From: Lobosporangium transversale
Lineage: Eukaryota
DNA: 64,000 nucleotides
Assembly: GCF_002105155.1 (NCBI RefSeq)
Contig: NW_019028979.1
Coordinates: forward strand, 1,054,001 to 1,118,000
Direction of reading: 5' to 3'
Shown here: piece by piece, positions 31,801 through 60,379 of the stretch
Numbering within the stretch: position 1 is the first letter of the stretch
Layout of the letters: every line of letters starts with the position of its first letter
Notes under the pieces: model-generated
What the model was told of the DNA's origin: nothing
The model's input: only the letters and a program-made list of their open reading frames with translations
The model's database searches: none
Program-made: the position numbers and the translations under genes

Positions 31801-32782
31801 GACTTTGTCTGTTGGACCATCGCTGGTATTGGTAAGATAACTTACTAACTTGCTCTACACCTTTTTTTTTTTTTTTTTTCTCTTTCAGAGGTGTTTTCTG
31901 CCCATGTTGCTGGCCTTTGAATTAACGATTATCTCCGCATTTATAATAGCCAAATTTGACTACACTTATTTCGGGCCAATCCCACTATCAAACGACAATG
32001 AGGTGAATCCTCATAAGATACCTCAGGTACTTTCGCACCCACGCTACAACAGCCAGTCCAATACGCTGATGATGAAGGTCAAGAACGTGTTCGAGAGGCT
32101 TTCAGCGGCTGATGAGGAGGCCCGTCTTCGATCCACGTATATTGATGACCCTTATGAACGTAAAATGAGTCTCTCTGAGTTTGTGTACCGGCGATGCGAA
32201 GATGTGAGGCAGCCTATGGAGGATGAAGAAGGCCCTATTCAACTCTGGTTGGCGCAGCATGGCCCTATCCGTATGAGACGTCGTCTATTGAAGGATGTAC
32301 TTCCCTCAGGATCTGAGGAAACAGAAAATGGGGCTAGTCAACAGGATCAAAATGATAATGATGAGGATGATGCCTCTGACCTCGAGGCTGAAGTCGAAGC
32401 CAAGCAGCAACAGCAACAACAACAGCAGCAAATGGAAGACAAACTGCCCAAAATCCCAACAAAGCCCAACGCAGCGTACAGTCATCAGCAACTAAAGCAT
32501 CAACAGCAGTTAAAACAGCAACAACAAATGCAAACTCAACAACAACAGCAGCAATCTGCCAAGCGTGCTAAGATACTCAGACGCCCAATGGGTTTGGAGG
32601 CAGAGCTGCCTTATGGCTGTGAAGTACGTGCTGCTATTGACAGTGAAGGCAATGCGCATGCAGAAATGGACCTTTTGATGGTGGAGCGTGCTTCGGGTAT
32701 TGCTTACCCAACTGGCTACAAGGTTGTATACTCGCGTAGCAATGAAAGCACCGAGTGGACTGTTGAAGTTGTCATAGCCTAA
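28831..32782 (+). CDS. Fungal CSL (CBF1/Su(H)/LAG-1) family transcription factor, Cbf11/Cbf12-like, with long low-complexity N-terminus and polyQ tracts
   Basis: Exons 28831-31831 and 31950-32782. LAG1 DNA-binding motifs AQKSYGIEKRYLCPPP and IPIISKPSKK; beta-trefoil motifs VSLLNRINAQTVRTKY, PVLYGSEIVL, LIIRKVE, GPVSQMQKI and CWTIAGI. Confidence 0.93.
31195..31345 (+). repeat. CAG/CAA (polyQ/His-Gln) coding repeat inside the CSL gene
   Basis: Runs such as cagcaacaacaacagcaacagcagcagcagcagcagcaacaa at about 31291-31332. Further Q tracts lie at about 32404-32430 and 32515-32553. Confidence 0.9.
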
Positions 32783-36060: not shown

Positions 36061-36800
36061 TCGCTGCTGATCTTTATAAGTATCGAGAGTATGCTTTGTT
36101 CAATAATGGCGTTAATCCGAATAACATCCAGTGTAACCAAGCCATCCGAAATAATTATTTGTATTTATATTATATGCTCTGCCAAATAAACAATAGTGGA
36201 CCTACTGTCCGACCGGGATTAATACCAACATTTATCATTTAAATAAGGATATCAGAGCGGCTCGAATCGTGGGCAGACGCAGAGAATCCTAAGAAATTCA
36301 GGAGGCAACAAGTCCCGTATATGTTATGGTGCACATATGACTACACAAACATTACCTGAATGTAAACTGACAACAAAGTTGTTAATAAAGACAAACACAC
36401 GAACGAAGGCGGTGTGTGTGCGACAATTTTATCCATTCTCCTTTTTTGACGAATATGACTATTTCTGGTAGTCATTTTTGTTGTGGAAGCTTTATCTCCA
36501 TTTAAAAAATTACCAGCAGGCCCGACATTCCCTCATTTAAATATCTCTTTTTTCTTTTTTTTAAAAAAGCCGCCAACTATTGGGCATAACTCACTCACCC
36601 TATTTTCTTATCAAGGCTCTAATAACAATCATGCAAAACTTCAAAGAGCGGTTACGGGATAGATCGTGCTGAATGGTTTCAAAATAAGATAGGATTTATA
36701 ACTTTACAAAATAGTAGGAATCAAGGATTATACAGAAAATAAAAGAAGTGTACTTAAAAAGGAAATATAGACGGACAAAAGTTTTTAAACTATACTTTCT

Positions 36801-37478
36801 CTAGCACTGCATAGTTTGGCTATCAAACAACAAGGTATTAACCTTCTCAACGCTCTTGCGGCATTCATATCCGTCCTTAGACTGATGCTGATTATCTTGT
36901 TGTTGATGCTGTGCTTGCTGTTGCTCTTGCTGCTGCTTTTGTCGATGTTGTTGTCCTTGCTGTGGGGTGGATGATGCATCCACATGATGATCGTTTACAA
37001 AAAAGGGCAGGCTTCCACCGTGATGATCAACATCCTCTGTCAGGGTCGACATGAACGAGTCGTGGGATGCTGTCGATCCATCTGGAGAATATCCAGAAGG
37101 TGTATCACACTGTGTTTGTGCATCTTGGCGTGTACTGCCAGACATGCTAGATTCTCCATTATTATTGGGTCCATCGTCTGAGAGCGATCCTTCCATATCC
37201 ATGTCATCAGATGAAATTGCTGGTGGGGAAGGAGGATCCGCTGTATCATCTTCCATCATGGCATGCTGCTGTGGCGGTTGCGACTGTGAAGAAATAACTC
37301 GAGGCTGTTGGCCAGCAACTGGTTGAGTCTGTTGCGAAGCAGGTGTAGGGACAAGAGTGGATTCAAGGGCAGCTTGCATCAGATTAAGCGCATGAGAAGC
37401 GGTGAACGTATGAGAGGAGCCTTCGAAATCACCTGTAGTCTGGGTCATTGGGACAGAAGTTTGTACAGATTGATGGAT

Positions 37479-37514
<36 letters not shown>

Positions 37515-40500
37515 TTGCTGTGGTAGTAATGATTGTGTCTGCTGAATGGCTGTCTGTTGAACAGTATGCTGGTGCTGAAGCAAATGAGAACCTGCTTGTT
37601 GCATCAGATCGTACCCCGTACCAACTGTCGAATCAGCATGAAGATTACCCAACTGCAGTGGATCTGTATTAAATGAACCCAATCCGGTAGAACCATCGAC
37701 CTGAAACATCATTGAGTCAATGGGTGCAAGTCGAAGGGCTTCAGGTAGTTCCAGAGGATTGGCAAAGAATTGCTGGTCTTGCTGAGGATCTGTGCCACCA
37801 AATGCAATAGCAGCCATTGCCACTGCTGTCGCAATATGGCTCTGCCACATGGAACTGAGTTTGGTGGAGCTTTGATCCTTACCCTCGGGCAAAGGCATCG
37901 AAAAGTTTCCATAAGGATGACGAAGTTGAATCGAGGGCGCAGGTCCTGGTCCATCTTTAGCAAGTTTGGCCAACCTAGCAGCTTCATAAATATTTCCAAT
38001 TGACGTTGCCTGGAGTTGCGTCATGTCGATGAACGGAGCTACGAACGTCGAAATATCGATGAAAGAAGCTGCCATTTCTGTCGGAACAGAACTCGTTTGG
38101 CTAGCAAAGACATCCAAAGCGACAGCAATCAATGATTCTGCCACAGGGAAAGTCTTAACCAACTCGTGAGCAGCCTTGACAGTCTTGGAGAGCCCAGCAC
38201 GTGTCGTCTCACGGTTACTTGGTGTGGGAGTGATAGCATTATGGACATGAACTGTGCCTGCAGCCAAGAGACAGGCCATGCCATAGTAGCAAGTATCACG
38301 GAGTTGTCCATGGAGCATCAGTGAGTCCGCAATATGACAGACATTGGTGGCAGCAGCGGTACAAATATTCCTGGAAGACACTAGAAAGTTAGGATCAATG
38401 GCAGCAGAGTTGACAGGGCGGAGATAAGGGCGATGCAGCATCGTAAGAGTAGTGTAGTAGAACATGTGCATCAAGGCAGTTGGTGGTGAAGGTGGGTGAT
38501 TCGAATTAGGCGACATGGTGTATGGTGTGTACATGAGTTCATTAGGGAGTGAAAGGAACCACGACGTCAGACTGTTGTGCAGCTGAGGGAGTTGTGTCCG
38601 AGAGATGTCAGCCAAGAATGCGCCATTGATCTCGGCTTCGATGCAGTGCATTGTATTAAGGACATTGCCCATCTGCATAAACAACTTAACAGCCCATAAC
38701 AATCGGCAAGAGATAATCCTCTCGGGCTCATATGGATATTCGACTGCATCGTCGCCACCAAGCTCAGAAATCCAGTCATCTGATGGCATCTGAACATTAT
38801 ATTCCTTGTCGCGCAAATTTAATGGTCGTCCAAGGATTCCTCCTCCAAGTCGGTCTGCAATGTAGACAGCCCACCAAACTCTCTTCCTGATTTCAGCTTC
38901 TTCGGGTTCGTTCACTTGGACGTCTTGGCGATGTAGACCAATATCCTATTGAGCAACAAAGCGTTTCATACATATGACTGTTAGTGACGATCAAAACATT
39001 AACTCGGAATAATGGCACAATACCTCTATCAATTATTGAGTGGCTTACATGAGCAATGCGTGTGGCCATTCCAGTGTAAAGCCAGCCACCTGAGTAGTTA
39101 CCAACGGCGTACTGATGATGAGACATCAGCAACAACGCCTGTACAGTACTGATATGAGAGACATGGTACGTCTCGTCCAGAATAATCTTGGCTCGATTGA
39201 AGTATTTTGTAGAATCCTGTTTGATTAGCGGGTCGTCTGAGTACCAGCAAGCATTGCAAAATATGGCGTTGAGAATCAAGATTTGTGAGAGATCTGGCCG
39301 CTTCTCTTCGTACTGCCGCATAAACGACTTGCGAATGAACATGGGTGCAAATGGATACATGTAACGGAAGAACAAACTGAGCAGATTGTCCATCTCTGCC
39401 TTGGAGGGAAGTTCACGCTCGCTAGTCATTTGAAGCGAGTGGGACCATAAATCACTGTCATTCAAATGAGCCATAGGCAGAGGATCTAATTGTCGTCAGT
39501 AGAAAACAATTGGTTATTGTTGCTATTTGTTAACACAATTGATCATCTAATTATACTTAGTTAAAATACGTACAGACGCCTTTGCGGTAACGAGAGCTGA
39601 GCTGACATACGTAGAACCCGGAACTACTGCCGTGGAAACTATGATAGAGCAAGCAGACCAAGGAGAAGAGTAAATAGAGTTAGTAAAAAATAAAAATAAA
39701 TAATAGAATCCACCTGTGATTCAACTCTGTTGTCAGATTTGTTTGATTGGGATGTGCGGCAGACAGAGAAGGCAAATCCAGCGTGCAAGCATGTTTGCCC
39801 ACTGGAGACTTTTACTGCTGTGAGATAGCACACATCTTCCTTTTTGCCCAAAGGTAAAGTGGAGAATATTATGTGGTCTTCACAAGACATGCGATGCGAA
39901 ATGCGATACGGGAAAAAGACTCTTTGTGATGTATGATTTTAGTTTAAAAAACCAAATAAAGCTGATGCGTTCTTAAGTGTCACTTACTGCTGACCATGTC
40001 CGTCCAAGCTCATTGTGCTCACAACAGATTTGAAATCCTCCCCTTTATTAGTCCCACATGAAGAGCCCCCAATGGAAGATGTCGAATCTTGTGGGTCAAG
40101 AAGTGATGAAGGTGAACCCGGGTCACTATCCCGATCAGGTCGTGAATCTCTTCGCTTTGCCTTGGGTTTTGTGGACCCCTGATCTTTCGAGACTCGCTTT
40201 TTGTTCATATTGTTGGATAAAGTAGGTTGGCTTGGATTAGAGGTAGAGTAAGAGTTGGAAGAAGACGGTGATGATGAGGAATGAGGATCCATTGTATTGA
40301 CTTCTGATCCAGGTTTAAATGACGATGTTGATTTTCTTGAAGTTGACGAAGAGTGCTTTTGATGCTTCGTAGTTATATCTGTGGATGGTTGATAGGGAAT
40401 GTTGTTGTAACTGGTTTGGCTTGTATAACTGTAGGAATAAGCAGGCGATGGACTTGGACTGAGACTAGAGAAACTTGTTGCGCTACTAGCAGACATTCTT

Positions 40501-40898
40501 CGATCAGATTGATAGTCCATCGAGTCTCTATGTTCCGTCATCTCATCGCCAGAGAAGGAGGAAGTCGATGATATGGAGCTGCGATCATGTTGATGTTGAT
40601 GATAGGATGAGGGATGGGTACCGTTATTGTTATGACTGTTCTTAGAACGGTGGTATTGTTGCTGTGAATGGTCAAGTGAGGTGGAGGATGTGGATTGGGA
40701 AGGGCGAGGTTGCTTAGCGTAGAGACTTGAGGGACTGTTTGTCTTGAGGAATAAGGCCTCGTCAACAACACATTCAAGATTATGGGTGACACATCGAGCG
40801 CAGTTTGGCGTGCCAGTACACCTGAGCTTCTTGCGACGGCAGTTTGTGCAGGCTGTGCCGGCTTTGAGTCGCTTTTGACGGACAACTGGAGCTTCCAT
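36801..40898 (-). CDS. Zn2Cys6 (GAL4-type) transcription factor with Fungal_trans middle homology region, about 1185 aa, 4 exons
   Basis: Exons 40898-39988, 39638-39574, 39485-39049 and 38945-36801. ACTNCRRKKLRCTGTPNCARCVTHNLEC (CX2CX6CX5CX2CX6C), HFHGSSSG, STVQALLLM, GWLYTGMATRIAH|DIGLHR, RKRVWWAVYIADR and LHRPYL; Q-rich C-terminus. Confidence 0.95.
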
Positions 40899-43800
40899 AA
40901 TTTAGGGTATAAAAAGAATTTGAGTTGTATGAATGAGTGTGTGGAGAGAACGAGCGCACAGAATGTGAGTAATAAGATAGTGTCAGAAAATTTAGTGCAA
41001 CTGTGAAAGAGGGAAGGGTATCAAGATCAACGTGGAATGCAAGGTGATAATTAGTATAAAGATGAGTGTGGAGAACAAGAAGATTGGATACAGATACAAG
41101 AAGAGACAAAAACAAGCAAATAAGAAAGAAAAAGAACAAACAAGATAAAAAGAAAAGAAAGAGGAAAAAGAAAAGGGAGCCACGCAACATGTTTTTGAAA
41201 GATCAGAGGCGAGTCCAATCAAAGCCAAGCTAATTTTTTGAAGAACGAGAGCATTAGACATTAGTACCAACTCATAAATATCATATTTACAAACAATCAG
41301 ACATCGACCAAAATAAAACGGATGCTTTTTTACATTATGTTTGCTTGTCTGGCAATGATCTCCCTACTCCAACCTCAGTGCTAATATTGAGCTCAGGTTT
41401 TGTGGAGAACACGATATCAAACTTTGCAATCGCGGGAATTGTAACCCATGTCCCTGAATAGCACTGTTTATTTTGTTATTATCAGTTTTAATAGCAAGGG
41501 TAGTCCTTGTCACAAAATAGAATTGAGATTCAAAGGGATGCCAAGCCGGCTGCTATCTCAGGAAAAAAAAATGAGATGACGATTCTAGGTTGCTCCACCA
41601 AATAAATGTGAGTTGTTTTTACGTACGTGCATTTGCATGCATGTTTTTTGTGAGACGCATCTGCTTTATCCTCGCCAAGAAGCAAATCATTTTGATGCCG
41701 ACTTTATTGATCGTGGTAAATGACGCTTTGTTTTTACGTGGCACACACATGGTCCTTTTAATTATTGCTCGCAATGTTTAGATCCTCAAGGCAAATTTAT
41801 TCGAAACCTGGCATGGCGAGAAAATGAGTGCCCGTAAAGTGTACTTTTACCCCTCTTTCTTCAGTCGGCATCAGTAGAAGTGAGAGAAGGCCATTTATGA
41901 TAGTGAAAGAGGTAGTTTCCTCCCCTTTCATGACCAGAAAGGTGGTTTACTCGCAAACGCCCATTTGTGGCTTTTTTTTTTTGAGTTGAGTTGAATCAGG
42001 GGCATCCCAACGGACGGAGAAAAGAAAGAAATTCCCATCCCCATCCTCAATTCGTGTGTATTTCATGCCAAAAACTACCACCTCCCTCTTTTATGCTGCT
42101 AGTCAGAGAACCTGCTATTACAAGGCGAGGGCACCTTTCTCATTGTTCTGATGCTGCTTGTTGCTTGACTGCCCGTTCTTTCAGTGTAATTTTTGTTAGA
42201 TTAAACCGAGTCTTCACATGCTAATGAATTAAACCAGCCTAAAGTCCCTTGTTTGTTGGATTTACATCAAACAAGGAAGAAGGACAGATGGTCACACAAG
42301 GACCTCGCATCAGATTTATGTGTCTATTTCTTGCATTGCCTACTCATTGGATCGATTAATATGAATACGAAGGTCACGCTGTCATTGCGGCTCAAACAAA
42401 CAACAAACAAATGCAATTTTTGTACTAAAAAGTGGATACGACAAATGAATATCCGAGATATACCAAATGCAGAAAGCATATCAATAAGCAACTATAATCC
42501 TAATCTGGCTCCACAGGCGTGGGAGAAACTAACTTTCCATCCTACATCTTAGCTCTTCTAGCTGTGCAATGTTTAATTGAGAGACTGATGAATATGTTTA
42601 TGGAGCCTCATATATATATAATATTTATATAGCTGGCTTCACTTCATATTTTTGGATAGCCTCGAATGTATTAGGAGCCAGTAAGTTTGGAAAACATATG
42701 GGACCAAACCTGGATATATTTCTATAAATATTTTAATTTTCTTATTGACTCCAAATAAGGCTAGGACTAAACTAACTTCAGCGCCTTCATCCTGTTTGAT
42801 TGTGGAGTTTCTATTGATGTGGAGAAGAGATGCCAGAGCCAAGAACCGCTTTATAAAAGTACAACCATAATGTAAAGTTCTCTTTTTTAACATTATTTTC
42901 ACCGAGACTGGAACCAATAATGTTATAAAGACAGCACAATGCTTCGTGGGTATCTCCTGAGTCTTCGTCTAATATTTCAGACCTTTTGCATCAGGTGCAA
43001 TTTGGTTTGCCATTGACAAGAAAACGCGATCACGAATAAAAATGTAACCGATGCTCAACAATAAAAAAGGAAATAAAATGTAAAAAAAAACTCCGAGCCG
43101 AGCATAGACGCGCAGATGAGAATGAACCGACGCATGGACAGGCATGTGTACATGTATAAACGGTTTTCATTAACATATATTTATATATAATACATATACA
43201 TGTATATTTACATTTATTTGTTATTGTGACAAATGCATAGGCACAGACAAACAAGAGCGCCCACAATTGACTACGAAAATAAGATCGGTGTCCTGACAGT
43301 GAATCCGGAAATAAGCCAATGATTTAGGTGGTAGCGCTGGCAATAGAAGTAAGCATGATCTAAGAAACCAATTTAACATTTACTGCAATGCGATTGATCA
43401 ACGCACAAGTCAGTCAATCAAAAAACACCATTTCCTAGACTTGGAGCTTAGATAGCGTGTCATTTTTGCCATTCGCTCTCCAACAACTACGGAAATAGAG
43501 TAAGGTTCTTCCAACTGCAATAAATCCGGGGATACCAATAGTTAAGAACGGAAATGCATAGCATTAGGCTTTAGATATAAAACCATGCCAGTCTGGCCTC
43601 CCTTAATGGCGCACGATGTAGCAAAGTGCTAGGGGGAAATGACTCCTTTGCCTGTAGCAAGAACAATGACTTAAAGGCAGAGAAGTATGTCGTTCTTGAC
43701 ATACTTCATTGTTTTAGCGATAGGAGCCTTCTACATCTTGATCTTTCAGGGCCTTTCCTTGTTCAAGTGAATAGGGGCCATCTCCCCTTCCTCACACGTT

Positions 43801-46208
43801 CCTTTTATAAACCCAACTTCTCAATCATAATATGAAGCATACCAGCATTGATGATGCTTGTAAGGTGATGAGTAACAATGATAGGATGCCCAGCTGCTGT
43901 TTGGATAATATGCTTGGACTATGCGGCCAGACGAAAGTCGTTGCGCTCAGGAACAGGATGCAATGACCCTTTATTAGTGTAGCGTGATAGCAATATGCCA
44001 TTTTTCACTCTCAGGAAGCGTGGGCCCCTCTCATCCACCATATTGCTGTGCTTTTTGGAAAGCAGTGAGATGAAGCCCTGAGCACTAAACAACTGACAAA
44101 TGTTCTCAAACTCTTCATCGATTGGTGCGGGCTGCCCCTTATGAATGTTATACGCAGTTCTGCTGGATCATTACATTGAATAGAATAGAATAATCCCCTG
44201 GGGAATACGATCGATTGTTTCACAAAGATGACAGACGTTGGTATCTTTGAGAGCATAGTCACCTAAAGCAATGGAGCCAACAACTTAGTCGTAAAACACT
44301 CGATAAGGCCAACAGTTGTGGATTTACCGCTACCGGAGTGACCGACAAGGCTAGCTTTCTGCCCTCGATATCCGCCTGATTAAGGATATGTACATCTAAA
44401 CGTGTTGAGCAAGGTATTTTGTATAATATTTTGGTCATTGAAACCACCTCGAGTTACTTTTTTGAGACTCGATGATACAATATCAGGAGCGCAATCAATG
44501 CCGTGCAAACAACAGCCCGAGCGTTAATGTTGGCGGAAATGCTTCCGGTGCAGAATGCATCTGTGATCAAGCGGAACAATATTGTCAAAATATCGTCCGA
44601 CCCCATGTCGTTCTCCTGGCTTTTCAATGTCGACAGTATAAGATAGGGCGCTACAGTCATTTCCATGGATGCTGTAGTTCGCGCTATCCCTTGCACTGTT
44701 AGGAATGGAGCAAGAGTCAGTATGAGGTGAAAAAAAAAAAAAAACATTAACAAGTTAGAAATTTCCATATCAACTATGGCTCTTTTGTATGAAGACTGCC
44801 ATGTCTTGTTATCATTACTATTATCATTATTCGCCTCAACGTCAAACAAATACGATAATGCCATCTGTCGATGTTTCTACAGGTATGGAGCAATCTCTAC
44901 ATTTTACTTCTGCAAAAAACGGTTCGCTGGGCAAGAAATCAGCGACTGTTATTTATTTATGTTTGTGAGTAGAGCATAGTCCTGTACACAGCAGCGCACA
45001 TGTATTATTAATGAAGGTGGTAGCCTTACTCACCATTAAAGAAGGCTATAAAAAGCCAAATTAACAACTGATTTAGATAGAAACCAACTTATCTTACTGC
45101 ATACCTCTTTAGTATAGGCCTGTGTACTGTACAAGGCTTCCATAAAAAAGGGGTCCAAGGAGCCGATTACTACGTCTTTTATGTCATTGCAAACGTAAAA
45201 TTATCCTCAAAATAGTAAACGTGCCAAAATGTTCTGCCCGTCAAAGATCATCCCTTATTTACGGGAAAAAGGTATCAGCGGCATGCCGCCTTAATGAGAA
45301 GTGCTTATATCCAAACCCATGGACAAAAAAAAAAAAAAAAAAGCGGGAAAAACGAGGGGAAGAGGTTGATTTAATGATATTAAGGACCCATTAACAGGCT
45401 TGAGCATCGCAATGAAAAAACGACCATTTGTTATAAAAATAAACAGCGAGAAAGTCTTTTATTTGTTGTAGACTTGGGATTTGGTCCCTGTCTCCTTTCT
45501 ATCTAGATATTTGCATGTATTGAAGACTTTGACAGCCCCACACGTACGGTGATCTTTTAAGCTACACCAGTAAAGAGTTCAAGGAGGTTGAGTTCGAACA
45601 CTGGACCAAAAAGGGGTTGGACAAGTGGACAGGCAGGCACAGAGTTGGGGGAGATAAAATGAAGGGCGTAACAAGGGGTCATTTCCTTTAAGATCAGACG
45701 TAAAGAATGAAATCAAGGAAGATCACCTACAAGCATTGGCCAAACTAGATAGGCTGCGGCCCTTGCCATTAGAGTAATCAACTTCATTAGTAAAGAAGAT
45801 AAGGTATCTTTTTAAGGTAAACGACTGGTTACGGGTATGCTTCAGGAAGAGAAAAGGAGAAAGGAACGGCTGCTAGCAGGGCTTTATACATCTTTTCGGA
45901 AGCAAGGAAAGGCTAAAAAGATCCCATCCAGTCCTTGACGGAATCAGGCAGCCCTATGGCACATACCATATGATATTCGTAGTAGGGCTGCTCTTGCCGG
46001 TTCCTTAAAAGCTCTTTGTCATCCTAGCTCGTCTTTTTCTTCTCTCTTTCATCCTTACCAGTCTTTCTTTTTCGAAAACTAAAAAAACTTCTGCATCCAA
46101 CGCTTTCTTGAACTGTCCTATTTCATTCGCAGCAGTTCAGAGAAACAAGCTCTTCCTCGCAATCCACTTTCCTCTTCGCTTGTTTCCGTCTCAATCACTA
46201 ACTACCCG

Positions 46209-49200
46209 ATGTGGTTTAGGCACATCTACACATTAGTCAAGGCAGCAGTTCTAGTGACCATTGTAGGTGCATATACGCGCAATGGATTCGATTCCCCTTC
46301 ACTCTTTGCTGCAGGCAAGTCACTACATTAAATACATCATGTCATACACCTTTGTAAGATTTGTAGGCTGGGCGCAGCTCCATCCTTTCCTTCTTCCCAT
46401 CATCTATTACCGCTGTGCTTTAATGTGTTTTTAATCATACTAGCGATATTCTTAATCAAGCATAGATCAACACCATGATCTACATCTTTCCGCTCCAGCA
46501 TTACCATTAGCACCACTATCGGCATCGTATCTTACCAAGCGCTGGCATCCAGAGCCACCACCAGTGCTTCAACGTCCTTGTTTGGTGATAGATAAGATCC
46601 ATGGTCGCGCATATATGATTGGCTACGACTCTAAAGATAGACTCGTTTTCAACTTTATGGACTCGACTGAAGCCTGTGATAGCAATAAGCAGGAACGGTA
46701 CAAAAGCGAGGAAACAGGAGACGGTAGTAAGGGATGGCAAAAGGAGGAGCCGCTCGATTGGCAACACGCTCAGTGGATCTCTCTCCCCTTTCCAGGAGGT
46801 GCTGTCCATCGTGGGCGTCGTTTTGATACTGGGCACTGCTTTTTAAGTAGCGATCATAAATTCATGGTGCCATCCTATGAACCGAAGGTGAAGGTGGGTT
46901 TTCAGTATGGGATCATGGTCGTCGGACGTGGACCCACATTCGGATCAATCGACCCTGCACATACCATGAAGAAGAGTATGAGAAAGGAGGCAAGATGAGG
47001 ATGAAGGAGGATACCAAAAGGATTAAATTTGAGCGCCCTGCTCGAATGATTGTTGTGTATCAATCCTATCGCGAGCATGCAACACATCGTCACCGTAGTA
47101 CAAACCACCTTGATGGTGACAACAACGACCAAGAAGCACTGGACACAATTGTAGCCCAATGGGAAGACCGGCATGGACGTCATCACCTTACTGGCGTCCA
47201 GCTTGTGAACCACATGGTCTACTCATGTCATGATATCAAGATTGGGCAAGTTTGTGTGTTCTTTAAATGTATTCTTCCTCTGTTAATGAATTTTTTACTT
47301 ACTCCCATTCCTTTCTTCCCCTTTTTCGAATGTATTGCCTCTGACCAACTTAGAAAAGGTACTCTTCCTCCAAACATCACACTCGTGGCCTCGCCCAACA
47401 ACCCTTATCACTATACATTCCATAATGCCCCCAAGAAATACAAGAATGAAGGTGATCATGGCAGCCCCTGTGGAAATACAGCACTATTTCTCTTCGGCCC
47501 CCAAGGCTCGGGTTGGTTCAACATCTCCATCGCTGATCGTCCCAACCCGAGACCTATTGACATCATTTACAGACAGCATAATGTTGATAAAGCTATCAAG
47601 GATGGTTTTCACCCTCTGCCTGATATCCATATTGAAAATCCACGGGCAGTTTACTATGACGATCAGCTCTGGATCTTTGGAAAGGTAAAAAGAATAAACA
47701 GCAAGGTCAAGAAGCAGTTACAATTCAAGCTTCCTTTGAGATAGAAAGCAAATGAACTAACCTTACTCATTATCTCCAAACCTTGGTAGAATCATCGCGG
47801 CGTAGGTGTCTAGAGCATTGATGTCTCGGGATCATCTAGAAAAGACTATGAGATCATAGTCCGGCCCCAAGGAGGGCCTATTCCTGGCAGTTTGACCTGT
47901 GCATTATTTATGGTGGATGCGACCGAGCCGAGAATTGCAGTACTAACCTGCGTCCTGGCGAGCGAGGCCGAATTCAAAGCGTCGCCCCTGTCTCCATTTA
48001 CAGGCCAGGTATCCACGACAGCGGTGATAACAACAATGCGAATAAGAGTGAGAATCATGGAGGTACTAGCCATACCGGACCAGATGATAGCTTAAACAGT
48101 GGTGGGGACTCCGACAGTTCAGGTTCAGGCGATTCTGGCAGTTCTGGCGGCTCGAATGGCACTAGCAATTCAGACAGCTCAAATTCAAATGCCTCTAGCA
48201 ACCCTGACGATTCAAATAATTCTGATAACCCTAGTTCAGGTGATTCTAGTAACTCTGGCACAGGTGGTTCTGACAACTCTGGTTCTGGCGGCTCGGACAG
48301 CTTGGGTTCAAATAACTCTGGTAACTTTGAAGGCTTAGATGAGGCTGGTAACTCGGGGTCTGGTGACTCAGGGTCTGGTGACTCAGGCGTGCCGGCTGAT
48401 TCTAGTTCATGGACTCCAGACTCAGGTGTCCCCGCGGGTACCGCCTCTGAAGGCGTACCCGATGTTCTCGACCCCAACGACCCATACCCGAACCCTGATA
48501 CATCAGGCCAAGTCTTAGTTGGAGTTACATCTATCCCAATGAACACAGCGAGCGTTACAACTAGTGATACTTCTGTACCCTCAGTTAATGGCTTTCCAAA
48601 TAACGTTGCCAAGAATAGCGATGATGGTTCGAAAAATCATATAGATATCATTATTGGCAGTGTACTTGTATCCCTAGCCTTAATTACGCTTGTTGCTCTC
48701 ATCTTTTTTGTAGGCAGGAAGCGCCGTTCAAATGATAGTGAGCTAGGGGAGGCGGGCTCTGGGGCAGACCAAAGCATAAATGGCGCTGGGATCTTTAGCT
48801 CAGAGAGGTATGTCGGCAGCGCGCATACACAACCCAAGCAGCCCACTGGAATCAATGACATGCCGGATTTGGCGCCAGTTACTCCTAGTATCGGCGATAT
48901 AGGCCTCTATGGGCTCCCTGGCCTTGATGGTCCTTCGGGCACTACGCGCCCTGTCGCAACCGTTAACAGACACAAACGCAAGGGATCAGTTAACGTACAC
49001 CATGAGCCTAGTGATGTCGCTTTTTTTGAGCCCTCTACAGAGTCTGATAGTATTCCATTGTTAAGGTCCTTGCAAACCTCTAGCCCAAAGCCCTTAGTAG
49101 GTGGCGGAGACCACAGTTTACCGCACCAAGCAAGCCATACACTGTCCGCAATGGTACCTATCACTACGACTGGTCCAAAGGCTGAAGTACAAAATTATTC

Positions 49201-50848
49201 GTCAAATACAAGCAAAGGAGACCTTGCTGTTCGAGCCATTGGGGCGGTTTCAGGAGCAGGCGTCGCAGCACTGGTGATCCGCCAGCATAGTGAAGGACTC
49301 CGCACACAAGTTGAAGGATTTTCATCGACAACAACAATGCTCACCCAAGATGAGACGCAAGAAGTCCTCTCTGGCCGTGATATGATTGAAAGCTCGTTGA
49401 AACACACAAATACAAACACGATCGCCTTGGAGTCGTCTTTAGTCATTCACCAAGATAAAGTCAAATGCGCTTCATCCCCTGAGTCAGTCCCACGGATCAC
49501 CGACGGCAAAACGGCTACAATTTCTGAAGGCATGGGTCGTAAAGAGCCCAGTATCCACAAGACCCAAATCACACTTAAGCTCAGTATCGTGTGCTATGAA
49601 CGCTCCGATGCTGCTCAGGCAACACCCCATGCAAAGCCAGGCACTCTGCTCTTCTCCCAGATGGAGATGCTTGGGAATACACCTGAAATTAACACTCTAG
49701 GTTCCGCATTCTCGCATGTTCGTGACATATCGAAGACCACTAACCAAGCGGCTTCTGGCCCTAGTGGGATAGTCCTCAGCATTGAGTCAGAGTCCCACAG
49801 GCGCTCTCTGAAGTGGATGAAGAATGAGTCCCAATGGAAGCGTGAGGCAGGCATGCTGCAGTATTTGAAGTCAGATCAGTACATCGCAGAGCTTTTCACG
49901 CTCAATTCCTTGCCAGCGTTTGCCGAGTATCGCTATGTGTCAGTTATGGGTCCGTTCAACTATACACTTGAGTCTTACATCAAAAGCCGTAAGGGTGTTC
50001 ACGCCATGCACCGGCCTCCTGCTGCACCAAAATACACTCTAGCTCAACAAGGGCCACTCACTTTGATAGAAATCAAAGCGATGACAGACAGTATTGCATC
50101 GGCCATCAGACGGTGCCATGACCATCACATTGTCCATCTTAGCCTTACGCCGGCGAGCGTATATTTGCAAGATGCTTATGAATCTTACGGTCAAGGATAC
50201 ACCTCTAGCCACCCATCCTATCCAAACAAATCTGTCTGGGAAAATAAGAACGTGTCTCAGATTCAACAACGATGGAAACTGTGGAATTTTAGTCATACTC
50301 GATTTGTAGGTGAAGCAGTGGATCTCAATATGGAGATGACCCCATATACCGCACCAGAGATTCTGGTAGCTAGTCATCACTACAAGAAGCATTTGGCGGT
50401 GATAACGGCTATTAATAATAAGAGCCCGAACGAAGGCACTACAATTACAACTATGACAAAGGGTAAAGTAACCAAGACGACAACAACCGACACAACCAAG
50501 CCCATCACGAGCCATGATACTGAAAAGTTAATAGCGAATGCAATGATGGATATGTGGTCTCTTGGACAGATCGTATATGAAATGCATACAACTCAGTCCA
50601 TGTTCATGACACATGAAGATGCTCTTGAGAAGCTGTCGTCCGTATTAGAAAGGCGTGATGAGGATGGTGATTTGGACAAAGTCAATGCGCACAGCAAGAT
50701 CAGACAGCAGCTGGAAGACCAGATTCAAAAGATAGAGCGGATCCCAGACCACGGTGCACGCGAAGTGATCAAGGGGTTGTTGGAGATGCAACATAAACGC
50801 CGGTTGGATCACGATGAAATCCGTGAATTATATTTGAACATTAAATAA
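46209..50848 (+). pseudogene. Receptor-like pseudokinase gene (signal peptide, Kelch-like ectodomain, Ser/Gly/Asp stalk, single TM, kinase-fold domain), disrupted in its 5' half
   Basis: Proposed exons 46209-46314, 46466-47245, 47354-47684 and 47790-50848. N-terminus MWFRHIYTLVKAAVLVTIVGA; TM IIIGSVLVSLALITLVALIFFVG followed by RKRR; kinase-like LKW, WKREAGML, IVHLSLTPASV, WKLWNFS, YTAPEIL and DMWSLGQIVYEM. Lesions: frameshift ~46882, TAG 47811-47813, frameshift ~47902. The frame is open from 47903 to 50848. Confidence 0.75.
48100..48425 (+). repeat. Ser/Gly/Asp/Asn low-complexity coding repeat (stalk)
   Basis: Reads GGDSDSSGSGDSGSSGGSNGTSNSDSSNS...GSGDSGSGDSG and includes a tandem gggtctggtgactca unit at about 48356-48385. 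Confidence 0.8.
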
Positions 50849-51747
50849 GTCAAGCACAAATCATCTTAATAGTAGAATAGACAATTATTAACTTTATTAT
50901 GAACTAGAATGTCTAGCGAAAGGGGGCTGGTTCCTGACTTTAATAATCGTTGACACCATCTCAATTGGAAAGAGCAGAGCAGCTCAACAAAGCAGACAAA
51001 GCGAATCACTCCACTCTTCACTCCACTCCTCACTCCATTCAAAAGATACTCCGCGCCAATCATGCAACCTTATTAAGGTAGAGATCGTTAGTATACACAT
51101 GTATCTATACAGATTTCATGGTGTCTTCTTTTACAAAACAAGCTGTTCAGTCCAAATGAGCACAGACAGTCTAATGTTCAACAAACATACCAGACGAAAT
51201 GGAAAGACGTTGTACTTTTTTTTTCATAATCCACATAGTGATCTCAATGAGATACAATTGCATCTTTCACGCTCCTGATACTCGAGTTGAACCATCAACA
51301 GCAATATTCTTATGAATTCGCCAAGGTCAGCAAGACTATGATATGGTGAGTAAAACCCATATTTTGCTATAATACTTGAATGACAAGACGACCCAGCGAT
51401 TCTGGATCCAGGTTGAAAAAAGCAAAAAAAAATGAAAGGGAAGGTTGAATAGCAACTGAATGCTATTCGACAGGCGTTAGTTTTAATCAAGACAATGTTA
51501 GGAGCATGCCAAAGCGATGCTCAATTTGCACTTTATCTGTCTCTGTCCATGCCGGTCAACCAGTTAGAAGGAGAGCAGACATGTTAACGCTTGCTATGCT
51601 AAGCAAAATGACTTGTTGCGCTCTTTTTTTATCAATCACGGTAGCTCTTCTTTTCCTCACCTCTTTTCCTTCTTTCCTTCTTGTTTTTCATCTCATTCTT
51701 CTTCATTAACATTTCTTAATTTGCTTTTCATTACAGCTTCATTCAAC

Positions 51748-53824
51748 ATGGAGGAGAAAAAGAAATCCGCTTTCGGAAAGGCGTTTGCTCGCACATTTAG
51801 TCGTAAAGAAAAATCACCTACAACAGTTCCTGCAGCCCCTTCTGTTCCTGCAGTTGCTCCTGCTCCAACTACAACTCCGGTTGCCCCTAACTCATCAAAT
51901 CCAATTGATCCACAAGAAAACGTGACCCTCTCGTCTTCTCCTGCCACCAATGCTGTTAACTCTGCTTCACCCATTTCCGTTGCGACGCCCAATCCGGTGA
52001 CTATCTCGCCTCCCGACTCGGCCAACGTCTCTCGGGTGGCCTCTCCAACCCATGATGACTCGCCAAAATCGCCCCAGAATCACTCACTACACTTGCGTGA
52101 AGGCACTGCAATGTCAAATGCGAGCTCTACTAGCCGTCATGGTCTTGCTGGTGAGGAAGGCGAGGGCCTTAATCCTGCAGACATTCTTTTAAATCGTCTC
52201 ACAGCCTTCAAGGACGTCATCAAGAACCTGCAGCACTATTTTGAAGAAGTGGTCGAGGTCGAGACTAACGTCAGCAAGGCTATGAACAAGGCTTCAGGTG
52301 TGATTACTGTTCCTTTCAAAGATGGACAGCAGTTCTTGGGCAAGGGCGGCCTTCAGGATGTGTGCACAGGCCTGAGAGACTCTGCGAAGACCAGGAGTGA
52401 CCAGCACGCCAGTGCTGCTCGCTTTGTGGACGAGACCATTGTCAAAAATTTGCGTCGACTCAAGCAGGATATCAAAGGCAGGATCAAGGCGCTCAAGACC
52501 GACTCTAACTTGTACAACAACAAAGTATTCAAAGAGCGTGAGCTTACTCAGGAGAAGGTCGCTGCTTTAGCCAAGGCTATCGGTCTCTTTGATATGTCTG
52601 GCCAGCATCAATCCGACATGGAAAAGGTGCAATCCGACCCTTATGTTATCAATCTTGGTGGGTATTGTTTATATGGTTTCTTTATGGGACTCTTGTACCT
52701 ATTCACTCGATGGCCGCTATTAAATGCTTATCATTTGATTTAGCGCTAATCTTGTTCTTTATTCTGTATAAAAAAGCATTGAAGTGCCAGCTGGCCAAGC
52801 AGGTCCATGAAGAAAATCTTTTTGCGCGTGCATTGAAGCAGTGCCAGGATGAGATCAAAACCTTTGAGGCTCATATCATTAAGGAGGTTAAGCAGATCTT
52901 AGCCTCGTTTGCCGAATACCAGCTCAATAACGCTACGAATACCTTCAGTCAGTCCTGGGCCCCCACCCAGCTTGCCTTAAACATGCTGCAGGAGGATAGT
53001 GAATGGAGTAACTTTGTGGAAAAGTATGGCCATCGTCTCTTTCCTTCAGATCTCGTTGATGCTAATCCTGACGATTTGGACTATCCATGCAAAGATAACC
53101 CTTATGTTATCCCTGTCAAGACAGCTCATCTTAGTCGCCAATCCTCAGTGCTCAAGAGTTGGAAGGAGGGATATTTTGTCCTCACGCTCTCAGGGTGGCT
53201 CCATGTCTTTGGATCAGCAGATCGTGAGAAAGATTCTGTTCCTGACCACTCCATATATATCCCTACCGCCACCTTGGGACCCCATACTGAGGCTGGTCAG
53301 AAGCAGCATAGCTTCTCATTAGAAGGGAAGGGTAAGGGTGGCCTCTTGCACCGTGATGCTCAGACTTTCACGTAAGTATTATTTTTATCACATTTCAATG
53401 TTTGCAACTTTTTCTTCAATATCCTAATGTCTTTGTTTGTTTCTACGCTTGCATACATGTTACCTTTCATTTCGTTGCGTTTAGCCTTCGTGCCCACTCA
53501 AGAGAAGAAATGTTGGAATGGTGGAGCGAGATTTCAAAGCGAGCTCACTCATCAACATTCACCCAGCCTGGCGATGGTAGCTTGGACCCCATTTCGCGGT
53601 CAGGTTCCGTTGTGAGATCATCATCTGTCGTCCAGTCCAAGGTTGCAGATCATCCACAAGGGCCTTCTCCTCCATATGCGGCTAACGAACATCACACCAT
53701 CGATGGGAAGGCTACATCTCCCGTTGTTTCTCCTGCTGCTACTTCTGAAGTAGCTGCTTCGCCAGTGCTTGCTCAGCATGTGGCTGCTCCAGCCCCTACC
53801 TCCACTCCAGCTCCAGCTCAATAA
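51748..53824 (+). CDS. Slm1/Slm2-like BAR-PH domain protein
   Basis: Exons 51748-52657, 52777-53371 and 53485-53824. PADILLNRLTAFKDVIKNLQHYFEEV, a helical BAR-like region with SDPYVIN, and a PH domain LSRQSSVLKSWKEGYFVLTLSGWLHVF...FTLRAHSREEMLEWW. Confidence 0.88.
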
Positions 53825-54069
53825 TTAGCGGTGGATGAAAGGGCTTGCTCGCGAATTAAATAATTATTAATAAACAATCTGCGTCACAGAAGGGCGAAGC
53901 GTTTGGATAAATTAAGGCATTAAAGCCTCCTTTTCATTCTTTGGCTTTACATTTGTTAATGTCATTGTCAAGTTGTCAGTCATTGTTCTCATTCTTTCGC
54001 CCATCTCATCATTTCACTCGTCCACTCCCACATATACACACGTTCTCTTCTCTCTCCCTCGTCCCTCGT

Positions 54070-54105
<36 letters not shown>

Positions 54106-54257
54106 TAAAAATACAATTACCTCTACAATCATCATTATTTTTGGTCAGTACCGGATAAAAGCAAAGTACAAAGTGTTCCAGCATCTCAGTGTTCTTTTTC
54201 TTATCTTTCGACCTTTTGAATTTATTATAGAGCTGGAACTAGATCTGTGACTCTGCA

Positions 54258-57200
54258 ATGATAGGATCAACACTTCTCAACGAACGAAGCCGTCAACTGC
54301 AACAGGCACAGGCACAGACACAGCGTCAAAACCAGACATCAATTCCTATTCATTTTTCACCTTTGGCCCAAACCGCTCCTCGGTCACTCTCGCCGGAAGA
54401 ACAGCTGGCGCGGATGACTCTTTTGGACGAGCTCATGGATGACATTGGCATGGGAAAATTTCAAATGCAACTCTTGGTAATGACAATAATAAATAAAGAA
54501 CAAAAATGCCAACCGTGGCATTATCATCCCAACTGTACTTCTGGGTCTACTTTTATACCTCATTGGTTGTCATTTTTATCCTTTTATTGTCTAACATTTT
54601 AATAACTCCATGACTACACAGGTTCTCTGTGGATTGGGGTGGTTTGCTGATAATGTAAGTAGCAATGGCAAAAAATAAAGGAAAAAAAGTTGATTTAACA
54701 GTAAGAATTTCTCGTAAAACATCTATTTTGTCTTAAACTTGATTCCATTCACGTAGATGTGGCTACAGGTAAGAAATAAAAGTGATAATTTCAATGGTGA
54801 AGTGGTGAATACACGCTTGGGATTTAAACTGATCAAATAAAAAAATGCCCTCTATTCTTCATTGTTGATACTCCTTCTTTTGTCGATCGATATCGCATGG
54901 CGATTAGTGCATGGCACTGATTTTACCCCGCGTCCAAGGTGACTACAGAGAGCAAATTTAATACTTTGTTGCTAGTTAATTCATGACCAGCTGCTTGATT
55001 CTCTTTGCGAGTGGAATGCTCATATCTGAAAGGAGACTGTGCTAATGCTACCTATCTCTTGTTATCTCATTAAAATCAGCGCAATTTGAGGTCCAAGATC
55101 AATATATTGGTATTCTTTCTAGCTCCACATTCGTGGGAATGATGTTTGGAGCAATGTTCTGGGGCATGCTCTCAGATTCTCATGGACGCAAGCAGGCTTT
55201 TAATTTTACACTCATCGTCACAACCATTTTTGGAATCGCTGCCAGTTTCGCCAACAGTTACTGGTTGCTATGTCTCTTAGCCCTTTGCTTGGGTTTTGGG
55301 GTAAGGATCCTACTATTTGCTTTTTCTTAGTTACTAATTGCATCCAAAAATGTCAAAGGAGAGTGACTCTTTATTTTGTTCCTAATATCAATAATTACAA
55401 TCCAATTTCATTAATTTTTCAGGTGGGCGGGAATATGCCAGTAAGTAATCCTAAATGAAGCTGCTCGTATCAATTCTATCATTACGGAAACATTGAGAGC
55501 GAGCTTCCAAAACAACCATTGATTTAAACTGTCTCCTTTCTCCTTTTTGTTTCTGATCCATTTCTCCCTGCATTATTCATACGGATCATAAGGTGGATGG
55601 TAATAATAATGAAATTAGGAACTAGGAGGATATGATCAAGATATGGCTTACTGTTGTAATCAGTTACTGCTCTGCTAAGCCTTCCATTTTTTATTAACAG
55701 GTGCTTTGTTCCTTGAGTTTACACCAAAGAAAAGTCAGTATCTTTTGACCTTTCTATCAATTTTCTTTTCATTCGGTGCGGTGGCAACATCTATTCTCGG
55801 ATATATTTTACTACCACCATTCAGCTGCGAACTGCCTGTGCCAGGCGGCTGCCAAGAGAAAGGATGGCGATACATGTTTCTTGCATTAGGTGGTGTGGTA
55901 AGTGAATCTCTTACTGGAAGTACTTTTATTTTTATTTTATTTTATTTTATTTTTTTTTTTGGCAATAAATGATGAATAGGGTATATTGGAATGAAGAATT
56001 AATTATATTTTTAAAAAAGACGCTGTCGATGGTTGTTGGACGCGTCTTACTGTTCAGATTAGAAGAATCACCCAAATTTCTATTGAATCATAACCGCCAT
56101 GAGGAAGCAGCGATGGTTCTCCGTCGAATCTATAAAATCAACCACCATAGGAACCAGCATCGTAACTCAGAAGTTTTTGAAGAGAACATTGAGACCCTCA
56201 CTTCTCGATTCAACTGCTCTCACGTTGCGGATGAACTTTCCTCACCACGGTCCTCAGAGGAGGAGCTATATTCTGACTCTGAATCTGTACAAGAGACAGA
56301 GCCATCAGATAATCGTAATAACGCCGCAGTAGGGCCTGCTAGAAGGTCACAAGATGATATTCATCAACGTCCAGGACCAATACTACGAAGTAAATACGGG
56401 ATGATGTTTTATAGAAAACGTCGCCAATGGCAGCAAAAGATTGATGTCGCTATCTCAAGAGTGAAGCCATTATTATCACCCAGGTTTCGACTTAGTACGA
56501 TCTTGATCTGGATCATCTGGGCCTTGGTGGCATTTGCCTACACAGCATTTAACGTATTTTACCCAAAGTTTTTACAGGAACATGGTGCAGTAGGCAACCA
56601 ATCCTTACGACAGGTCTACCTGGATATCCTTATTTACTCTGCTGCTGGTGTGCCTGGCTCGTTTGTATGTGATAAAAATAGCCCTAGCTGTTAAATGATG
56701 GTCTCTTTCAACTTATAATTTTTAACATTTCGCCGTCTGCTAATCTTTGTTTTCTTCTTTTTTAAAACTATACAATTCACTAGCTCGCCACAATCATGGT
56801 TGAAGGACGGCTTGGTCGTCGCTACACAATGGCCGTTGCAACACTTGGAACTGCTCTGGCCGCTGCCCTTTTCGCAGCCTTAAGCAGCCATGCAGCCATG
56901 ACCACATTCTCGGCTATTCTTAGTTTATTGGCCACCTTGAACTATGCTGTCTTATACTCGTACACACCTGAAGTATTTCCTTCTGAGATCCGTGGTACAG
57001 CTTGCGGTGTAGCTGCAGCCATGTCACGATTGTAAACTAAGCATGAAATAAGCAAACTAGAAACGACTCAATGTCGTCCCAGTACAATATAATTCTACTA
57101 ACTCACACTTATGTTATTGTTTCTTACTGTTTAATCGTAGGGCGGGTATTTTATCACCTCTGATTGTTGGAGCCATGCTTACTGTCAGTACTTATTTCCC

Positions 57201-58191: not shown

Positions 58192-60379
58192 TTTTTTTTT
58201 TTTTTTTTTTTTTGATAACAAGGACCCTCAGGGTCATGGGATTTATTTTCTACACTCTATGAACAAAATGCTCCAGAAACTATAGTCAATAAACAGCTAT
58301 TACTGCACAAACGACAAGAGCCGCTGTATCCATGATTTCATAAACCCTGACCGCCGTGGTTGGTACTCAAAGTCCACCTTTCCGACGTGGCCTGTTGCGC
58401 AACGCGACAAATTATCCGCTATCCATAGTCATCAAAAACTTCATTCCACCTAGCCGCTCCATCACGTCCAGTTTGGTTTTCCCAAGGTAACTGTCCCGGA
58501 CTCGGCCATCCGCGATCTTGTAGATCTCTTTTACATTCAGCTTCTGTCTTTGTCTGAGGGAAGGGACAAGGAAATCATTGCTACTACGTCTGTGCTCCCC
58601 AACACAGTTGCGTCCTCTAGCGCGTTTGCTCATAGCAGTGATTCCACGAGCCTTTTCCCATTCAACGGTGACTTTACACCGTTTGTTCCAGATTTCTGTA
58701 CGACCGAATTCCTCTATGGCCTTGACGAAGCGCCCTGCCATATATGTAGCTATCATTGTTGTTGTCTTGAAGCCAACTTTCCAACTCTGAGCAATGGACT
58801 TGGGCGTAAGTCCATGGTAAATGTCCTGCACAGACCAATCTGGTGTGTGCTCTCTCTCTTCCTCATCATCGCCGTTCCTATCACCATGGCGTCGTACTTC
58901 TCGCACACCATCGATATGCATCTCCAGAGTTTCCCAAATGTAGTCCTCCTCTGCCGCAGTAAAAGTTGGCTCTTTTGTCCTTGGTGGGTCTACACCTCTC
59001 TCTCTGGCCCTTTGTGCTTGCTCCTGCACTGCTTTCAACTCTTTCCTCCATGTCCCCTCCCCTATCACATTCACATTTTGGATTATCTCCTTCCACTTCT
59101 CGGCCTGAGTCTCCATCGTCCTTGGACATCTCCAGATGTGCGATGTGTCTTCATCCTCTGTCCCACACACTCTGCAGTTGCCGTCTTCATAAAGGTCTGG
59201 CCTCCAGTGTCTCATATATGACTGTATAGGCAACATTCCATGGAGTTGCTTGATCCTGTGCGCTCGCTTTTGGCAGTCCGCTGGGCTGGTGAAGAGTCCT
59301 TTCGGTAGGTTGCTATCATGAACAATGTTCATAGTAGCTCGCCAATCAATTTTTGTCCAATCCTTAACATGCTCCTGCGTCCTGTTCTGAGCGATCCACG
59401 TGTGATGTGTACGAGTTGTTGACTGTAACTTAAGGATCTGCCTTAAGTCATCTTCCGCTGGTACACCGTTGAACTTTGCATGGCAGTACATGTCATTATG
59501 CTCCGTTATGTTGATATCCCATAGCTCGCCATAATGTCCATGTTTTGCTGCTTCGTCCGCTTCTTCGTTCCCTCTGTTGCCGGCATGTCCTTTGACCCAC
59601 TCGACCGTGACTTCCGATCCTTGTTGAATAAATGCGTTGTGTATAGCTGCCCACCATACTGCATACGGTGATCTAATACGTTGTCGCAACGTGCTATCCA
59701 CTCTGCCTCGGACCAATGCTCGGAATTGAGTCACAACTGCGCTGTTATCAAGTCGGATTGTCATAGGTCTGTTTCGTGGGCTGATAAGTATTCCTGCCAA
59801 CAAACCAGCTAGCTCTGCCTTTGTCGAGGATGCGTTGCCTGCTACTCTACCAGATAGCGCAGTGTAAAACTCACCCTCTTGTGTCTGGACTACCACACCA
59901 AATGCCATACTTACTCTTTCAGTGCCAATATCTTTGAGAGATCCATCCGTATAAATGACATTACCCGGCTGGGTATTGTACCGTTCCCTTTGGCGTTGGA
60001 TTTTCTCCTCGGTATTGGCACTAATGATAACTCCATTTGTGTCCCTGGCTAGGCCTCTGTTGACTTCAGGGATCACTTTTAGGCACGGTGTCTCGTTGGA
60101 ATCCAGGTCGACTTTTGCTCTCCTTAGCAGAGCTTGCTCGCTCAGACCCTCATATCTCCTTGTGTTCTGGGTCCGGCGTCTCCTCGCTTCTTCGCGGGCT
60201 CGTATGCGTTCACCATGCCTTCGCTCTCGGTCCTGGTGGCGTTCTGCTCTTCTGACTATGGCATCTAACTTTGCTCTTTGTCGCCTAAGATTATGTTCTC
60301 TGGTTGCTCTGCGCGCCTCTTTCATAACAGCTTCTCGTCTCTTTTTCCGCTCCTTCTGTTGATCTGGCACTTTGTCCAT
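58192..60379 (-). mobile_element. Non-LTR retrotransposon (L1-like), 5'-truncated copy (family A): RNase H, CCHC finger, 3' UTR and poly(A) tail; no RT or endonuclease retained
   Basis: T22 at 58192-58213. Uninterrupted ORF 58412-60379 with RNase H catalytic motifs IYTDGS, STKAELAG, IRLDNSAV and WVKGHAGNRGNEEADEAAK, then HGMLP and CRVCGTEDEDTSHIWRC (CX2CX8HX3C). AATAAA about 28 nt before the tail. Confidence 0.92.

Follow-up and report, generated by a model that had tools for sequence, protein, structure and literature searches.

Receptor pseudokinases are known from plants (CORYNE, DRIK1 and MRH1) and animals (PTK7, ROR1/2, RYK, EphB6, EphA10 and HER3) and are proteins with a single membrane span, an outer domain and an inner kinase fold that lacks catalytic residues. 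Here we analyse a gene of this layout in the fungus Lobosporangium transversale, located at positions 46209-50848 on the + strand of a 64,000-nucleotide stretch of contig NW_019028979.1 (the whole stretch is referred to as the window). The locus is probably a broken, likely non-functional copy of a receptor-pseudokinase family of the Mortierellaceae, whose intact members appear to be non-catalytic receptors at the cell surface, with clustering and docking as their mode of signalling.

A survey of transmembrane kinases lists 54 such proteins in 18 fungi, all Ascomycota or Basidiomycota, with Ire1 as the main family (PMC10463195). A study of 49 fungi, zygomycetes and a chytrid included, considered only leucine-rich repeat (LRR) ectodomains; it found no LRR receptor kinases and asks what fungi use in their place (PMC2939053). 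PMC3268121 added nothing. The initial annotation had assumed that single-pass receptor kinases are not a standard feature of model Dikarya, a premise that needs an exception because Ire1 is a standard fungal single-pass kinase. Ire1 shares with the family a type I topology and an inner protein-kinase fold (PMC10463195), but the family proteins end at the kinase with no RNase domain (none in Pfam), lack the catalytic residues and have a different outer domain and a long stalk. The Msb2/Cbp1 signalling mucins and Wsc1-type sensors are likewise single-pass proteins that have a long low-complexity stalk and signal without catalysis of their own (PMC5854419). Unlike their Ser/Thr-rich stalks, that of the family is Gly/Ser- or Gly/Asn-rich and is followed by a folded pseudokinase. 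We know of no kinase-fold domain in the mucins or the Wsc1-type sensors.

The non-catalytic signalling model for the family is borrowed from the plant and animal receptor pseudokinases. Unlike these, the family combines a propeller on a long Gly/Ser tether with an inner linker of 290-760 residues and a kinase that is at most 21% identical to any solved kinase, and an independent origin is likely. We liken the family to the plant and animal receptors; membership in their families, in Ire1 or (by sequence) in Kelch is not established.

The window gene and its lesions

The gene comprises four predicted exons on the + strand (46209-46314, 46466-47245, 47354-47684 and 47790-50848). Its features are as follows.

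46209..46314, + strand: exon 1, with the ATG, a predicted signal peptide (~46209-46274) and the start of a short pro-region; aligns with the N-termini of records P0006 and P0078
46315..46465, + strand: predicted intron 1, GC-AG, phase 1; a phase-1 intron lies at the matching place in L003, a metagenome locus with an intact clade B gene
46537..46545, + strand: Lys-Arg/Trp, a likely Kex2-type cut before the propeller
46540..48010, + strand: Cys-rich beta-propeller ectodomain of ~420 residues, interrupted by introns 2 and 3 and by all three lesions, delimited by tblastn and alignment to P0006
46881..46883, + strand: lesion 1, a one-base frameshift relative to the intact ortholog P0006
47246..47353, + strand: predicted intron 2, GC-AG, phase 2; same position and phase in L003
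47685..47789, + strand: predicted intron 3, GT-AG, phase 0; same position and phase in L003
47811..47813, + strand: lesion 2, a TGG to TAG stop at a Trp (GVGVWS) found in all aligned relatives
47900..47902, + strand: lesion 3, a frameshifting deletion with loss of about six conserved residues, one of them a Cys
48011..48646, + strand: Gly/Ser/Asn/Asp-rich stalk with a Pro-rich membrane-proximal part and an in-frame Met at 48539
48647..48727, + strand: single transmembrane (TM) helix followed by RKRR, from a hydropathy scan
49064..49129, + strand: eroded clade A linker motif KRxSxAKFFMGGGDYxxxxRRxS, with the basic pairs, FFM and Tyr gone
49562..50848, + strand: protein-kinase fold without catalytic residues (beta-3 Lys at 49811, alpha-C Glu at 49844, HLS at 50135-50143, NFS at 50285-50293, stop at 50846-50848)

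The exon model is supported by L003, which holds an intact clade B paralog of four exons (1414 residues when spliced, no internal stop), since all three introns match it in position and phase. Removal of intron 2 also takes out a 36-codon insertion seen by tblastn against P0006. The exon 1 donor at 46315 is of the GC type; a GT donor of equal phase near 46267 is a possible alternative. GC donors thus occur in two of the three predicted introns (46315-46465 and 47246-47353), as opposed to GT in the L003 paralog, which is unusual within one gene. A second L. transversale assembly gives a near-identical gene model.

All of the parts claimed in the initial annotation (N-terminus, propeller motifs, stalk, TM helix with RKRR, linker and kinase motifs) are present on the + strand, but the frame that it proposed to repair proved to be disrupted by three lesions in the genome and not by one slip, all of which sit in the ectodomain. 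Contigs from three samples of three studies (X2, X3 and X4) carry the same letters, with 0 differences and 0 gaps at any of these sites. The window may derive from one of the samples; the remaining two have low depth and may represent the same strain. X5 and X6, with only short or heavily converted pieces, were not used. When spliced as in the relatives, the frame after lesion 1 stops at 46996-46998 and yields a product of 212 residues, so that the window copy does not encode the single-pass receptor in one frame. The disabling lesions are real, as in a pseudogene. Downstream of them the stalk-TM-kinase frame (998 codons) is still open but drifting. Both NCBI models (P0001 and P0052) route introns around the lesions, cutting conserved sequence, and omit the signal-peptide exon.

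Conserved loss of catalytic residues

The kinase part of the window copy matches Pfam Pkinase above the cut-off (E 1.7e-9) and carries the motifs LKW, KRE, HLS, NFS, APE and DMWSLG. Its structural model (predicted local distance difference test, pLDDT, 78) matches protein kinases at Z 22-25 (best 24.6), with a root mean square deviation (rmsd) of 3.2 over 270 residues; identity to solved kinases is at most 21% and there is no near family. The matches are near-tied, with CMGC kinases leading and IRAK1/4 lower in the same list, and do not place the kinase in any group, RLK/Pelle included.

Motifs were counted in 44 relatives, 25 from clade A and 19 from clade B (see below); P0001 was left out as the window gene itself, and P0021, P0039, P0041 and P0047-P0051 as fused, partial or lacking a kinase. 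The HxD Asp is absent from the window copy and 43 of the 44 relatives and the DFG Asp from the window copy and 37, and Ser replaces the catalytic-loop Asn in all 44. A kinase fold is therefore combined with conserved loss of at least one of the beta-3 Lys, HxD Asp and DFG Asp, as in pseudokinases. The reading of the lost catalytic Asp as a pseudokinase mark holds, and because the loss is conserved in relatives it is not decay. The beta-3 Lys was also correctly read in the window copy, but it is peculiar within its clade, where 24/25 orthologs have Arg at this position. Members of clade B keep the beta-3 Lys (19/19) and the Glu (19/19) together with HLN (18/19) and NFG (19/19), and their Gly loop contains no glycine. 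WKREA is found in 44/44 relatives, and 94 columns are nearly invariant across both clades. The fold is well kept while the chemistry is lost, which suggests a docking domain. A complex prediction of a clade B with a clade A kinase domain was uninformative (score 0.00).

Range of the family

A search with the kinase part returned a 100% match from L. transversale itself and 50 others, and all of the named ones belong to genera of the Mortierellaceae. They fall into two clades, A with 50-61% and B mostly with 31-37% identity to the window copy. The last motif of the ectodomain occurs in 12 of the 51 kinase matches, the L. transversale record included; most of the others are partial and start in or after the stalk. 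Ectodomain, TM helix and kinase are found together in nine clade A records (P0003, P0004, P0006, P0008, P0012, P0018, P0025, P0076 and P0096) and five clade B records (P0027, P0035, P0062, P0067 and P0073), two of these 14 having gaps in the gene model. The intact gene of L003 establishes at the DNA level that the three parts belong to one gene. The single-pass architecture in one frame is accordingly present in L003 and in 14 protein records. Neither of the two outcomes that the initial annotation named as refuting its reading came up, namely separate genes for ectodomain and kinase, or homologs with HxD/DFG that would reduce the changes to decay. Since Actinomortierella holds an ectodomain of each clade (P0076 and P0082), the duplication is old.

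A profile of the ectodomain run over 1.84 billion representatives gave 23 matches. Of these, 21 belong to the family and score E 1e-10 or better, all that carry a name being again from the Mortierellaceae; the remaining two are weak outsiders. The best outside match, P0094 (E 2.3e-5), has repeats that we read by eye as Kelch-type. No ectodomain on any other kind of tail was seen among the profile matches. Within the searches made, the sequences point to a lineage-restricted family. The earlier proposal of a lineage-specific surface receptor therefore stands for the family, which is encoded by one gene in relatives, but not for the window locus, where a receptor cannot be produced as written and constraint is relaxed. 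Scaffold signalling and non-self sensing, which were also proposed, are putative roles of the family. No description of the family was found in the literature searched, the coverage of which is incomplete and does not imply absence from print.

Ectodomain, stalk, membrane span and linker

The N-terminus after the ATG at 46209 is hydrophobic (best 10-residue hydropathy 2.5). KR-WH occurs in all nine clade A N-termini that reach it, the window copy included; the likely cut there is assigned from the specificity of Kex2. Clade B has a single K in place of the Lys-Arg.

The motifs GFSVWDHGRRTW, LFLFGP, LWIFGK and IIYGGC are present in the ectodomain of the window copy. Its fold was predicted on the intact ortholog P0006, as opposed to the broken copy, and the model (pLDDT 74, predicted template modelling score 0.80) is nearly all strand. 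Structural matches are beta-propellers, namely a sialidase (Z 17.4), the Kelch protein MKLN1 (Z 17.3) and fucose lectins (Z 16.4-16.6), at rmsd 3.5-3.9 over 265-280 residues and 5-12% identity; Foldseek places KLHDC3 and Photorhabdus lectins on top. Most of the top matches are six-bladed. Kelch, sialidase and lectin are tied, and such modelled matches reveal no function for the ectodomain. It resembles MKLN1, KLHDC3, sialidases, AAL/FleA and the Photorhabdus lectins in predicted fold (Z 16-17) and in its hydrophobic-strand-Gly motifs, but unlike them it is Cys-rich and predicted to be extracellular, and it shares with them neither more than this low identity nor a Pfam or PDB sequence match. 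The description "Kelch-like" is appropriate at the level of fold and motif but finds no counterpart in Pfam Kelch, which matched 0/8 ectodomain sequences up to E 10. The ectodomain profile had no match to sequences of solved structures up to E 1, and a full-length profile gave weak kinase and Seh1 matches only. Language-model neighbours are mostly Kelch at 0.85-0.87, below 0.9 and hence a lead only, and the full YGG blade motif occurs only in the last blade.

The stalk of the window copy has 213 residues (41% Gly+Ser), compared with 114-355 residues (40-67% Gly+Ser) in relatives, and suggests a flexible tether more than a mucin rod. One strong TM helix is seen, within a 46-residue region that ends in RKRR (hydropathy 2.89); hydrophobic N-termini and a TM helix with a basic cluster were identified by hydropathy, which also marks weaker Ala/Gly-rich patches in the linker. 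The linker between the TM helix and the kinase fold spans 287 residues. The motif KRxSxAKFFMGGGDY is kept in 19/27 clade A records. The clade B linker (e.g. L003 ~3600-4600) contains TERTSTGEIRYIIVGG-type repeats, which are conserved throughout that clade and do not occur in clade A; they may form a folded repeat domain.

Re-use of the kinase fold

In P0021 (clade A), P0039 and P0048 (both clade B), representing three genera, a pseudokinase tail devoid of TM helix and ectodomain is joined to members of a multi-copy family of repeat proteins of the Mortierellaceae, as seen in annotated gene models. This partner family (57 matches) ends in LRR-like or HEAT repeats, and none of its matches carries a NACHT or NB-ARC label. 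A conserved PRLF..LCECG..H domain without a Pfam label precedes the repeats and is reminiscent of the C-terminal portion of COR domains. In P0044, P0045, P0046 and P0032 the pseudokinase tail follows a helical N-terminal domain. This form is also seen as DNA (L002 678-3213 and L004 927-3448), and a partial tandem copy lies beside the intact gene at L003 9266-10520. Clade B copies that lack the ectodomain and follow the helical domain have expanded in one lineage, and in P0045 the catalytic loop has regained HLD. By analogy, the fusions recall the integrated decoys discussed for fungal NOD-like receptors (NLRs) in PMC5658179, and hint at a guarded or decoy role.

Relaxed constraint in the window copy

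Constraint was tested at the protein level only; the sole DNA of a clade A ortholog (L001) is distant. Clade-invariant sites of the kinase are changed in 22/177 cases in the window copy versus 8/166 in the clade B paralog of the same species (Fisher p 0.013), and 6/94 pan-family kinase sites are changed, including W189R. In the ectodomain, the window copy has 17/164 sites changed versus 3/150 and 5/152 in its closest relatives. The open 3' frame has the second-longest terminal branch (0.29 versus 0.12 for its sister). GC3 (GC content at third codon positions) was uninformative. At the protein level, then, the window copy shows the relaxed constraint of a pseudogene, with counter-signals that are weighed below. 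A prolonged period of weakened selection, followed by recent breakage, would explain this most simply, and there is a good chance that the window copy is non-functional.

Proposed mode of action and alternatives

Intact members carry a signal-peptide-like N-terminus, ectodomain, stalk, TM helix with basic stop-transfer sequence and kinase fold in one gene. The ectodomain is predicted to be a propeller, placed outside the cell by the predicted topology, and the stalk may carry it through the wall, where it could bind a glycan or protein. Binding would cluster the receptors through Gly-rich faces of their TM helices. Judged from its residues, the kinase fold would be unable to catalyse, as it lacks the HxD Asp and the catalytic-loop Asn and has an eroded Gly loop, with Arg for the beta-3 Lys in addition in clade A; the conserved fold and the linker motif may instead bring in an adaptor or an active kinase. 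The clade A gene of L. transversale would have drifted first and then taken the three lesions. Its clade B paralog, in which the kinase sequence is still normal, may have taken over the lost role.

Several observations weigh against this account of the locus and family. Seven of 25 clade A orthologs keep an Asp (as DFS) and clade B keeps both Lys and Glu, so that ATP binding or an unusual activity is conceivable. The predicted signal peptide and TM helix are based on hydropathy only. All three lesions fall within the first 31% of the coding length, a clustering with a chance of 0.03, and no stop interrupts the 981-codon 3' frame, where 2-4 would be expected if the excess change were neutral (P 0.12-0.014). 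The window copy has not undergone more radical changes than other lineages (p 0.46), and its divergence is equalled or exceeded by two intact relatives (P0076 with 35/184 in the kinase, P0025 with 24/171 in the ectodomain). Finally, both clade B records of L. transversale begin in the stalk or TM helix, leaving the ectodomain outside them.

The 5' clustering of the lesions and the open 3' frame would also fit survival of the 3' part as a shortened, membrane-anchored or cytosolic pseudokinase without ectodomain, starting at the Met at 48539 or later. This in-frame Met lies 36 codons before the TM helix, and ectodomain-less forms occur in relatives; however, the kinase shows no less drift than the ectodomain (35/209 versus 17/164), pan-family residues and the linker motif are lost, and the clustering test was post hoc and based on three events, so that we regard a truncated product as unlikely. 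More improbable still is a receptor with a trimmed propeller produced by new splice sites that skip the lesions, as in both NCBI models. In P0001 and P0052 a GTAAG-type donor near 46727 is joined to an acceptor at 46887 and a donor at 47685 to one at 47890, and the dinucleotides exist; but the skips remove ~55 and ~35 conserved residues and with them entire strands of the predicted propeller, neither intron occurs in L003, the ancestral acceptor at 47789 is intact, and both models also lack the signal-peptide exon. It is hardly credible that the lesions are sequencing or assembly errors in an intact gene. Frameshifts are common assembly errors, but the letters are identical in the three samples, the gene models of two separate NCBI assemblies bypass these sites and one lesion is a base substitution; a shared laboratory lineage of all samples would make the lesions strain-specific, and not errors.

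For the family as a whole, the dead kinase might be a guarded bait or wall-anchored scaffold that mimics the target of a bacterial effector and is watched by intracellular repeat proteins. The fusions to repeat proteins, in three genera and both clades, and to the helical domain speak for this, as do the integrated decoys discussed for fungal NLRs in PMC5658179. The three repeat-protein fusions are annotated models only, however, and their partner family lacks a NACHT or NB-ARC label, while an ectodomain that is low in copy number, changes slowly and is kept in two clades is more readily explained by a fixed ligand than by an arms race; we consider this role doubtful, although it can coexist with a family of receptors. 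An atypical active enzyme, above all in clade B with its Lys and Glu (each 19/19), HLN and NFG, would be in keeping with the DFS of 7/25 clade A orthologs and with reports that some pseudokinases retain activity. Against it stand the absence of the catalytic base in 43/44 relatives, the change of the loop Asn to Ser in 44/44 and the lack of glycine in the clade B Gly loop, and an active kinase seems improbable. We therefore retain the explanation of a broken copy within a family of non-catalytic receptors.

Neighbouring genes

Spliced RNA contigs (data set X7) cover both neighbouring genes, a BAR-PH protein at 51568-53896 (+ strand) and a Zn2Cys6 transcription factor at 36801-41032 (- strand), and none lies on the receptor gene; such contigs show presence and not absence, and were not used as evidence. 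X6 contigs on 36500-56400 show C>T and G>A changes along their whole length, a pattern like that of bisulfite-treated DNA, and this data set was not used. Elsewhere in the window are a CSL/LAG1-type transcription factor (LAG1-DNAbind, BTD) at 28825-31848 (+ strand) and, at 58412-60379 (- strand), an open reading frame with an RNase H domain that is likely part of a retroelement.

Biological implications

Reviews deny this receptor design to fungi, and a conserved family of two receptor-pseudokinase genes in common fungi of soil and roots provides a concrete counter-example; it also offers a knock-out target for studying how these fungi sense their surroundings; the window copy matters mainly as a natural loss. 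A bolder and quite tentative proposal is that the Mortierellaceae have a receptor-kinase system of their own, in which two ancient propeller receptors with dead kinases sense bacterial or fungal surface molecules and signal as scaffolds, and the kinase has repeatedly found its way, by copying, into intracellular repeat proteins, where it acts as an integrated decoy. If true, this would be a fungal counterpart of the surface receptors and guarded pseudokinases of plants.

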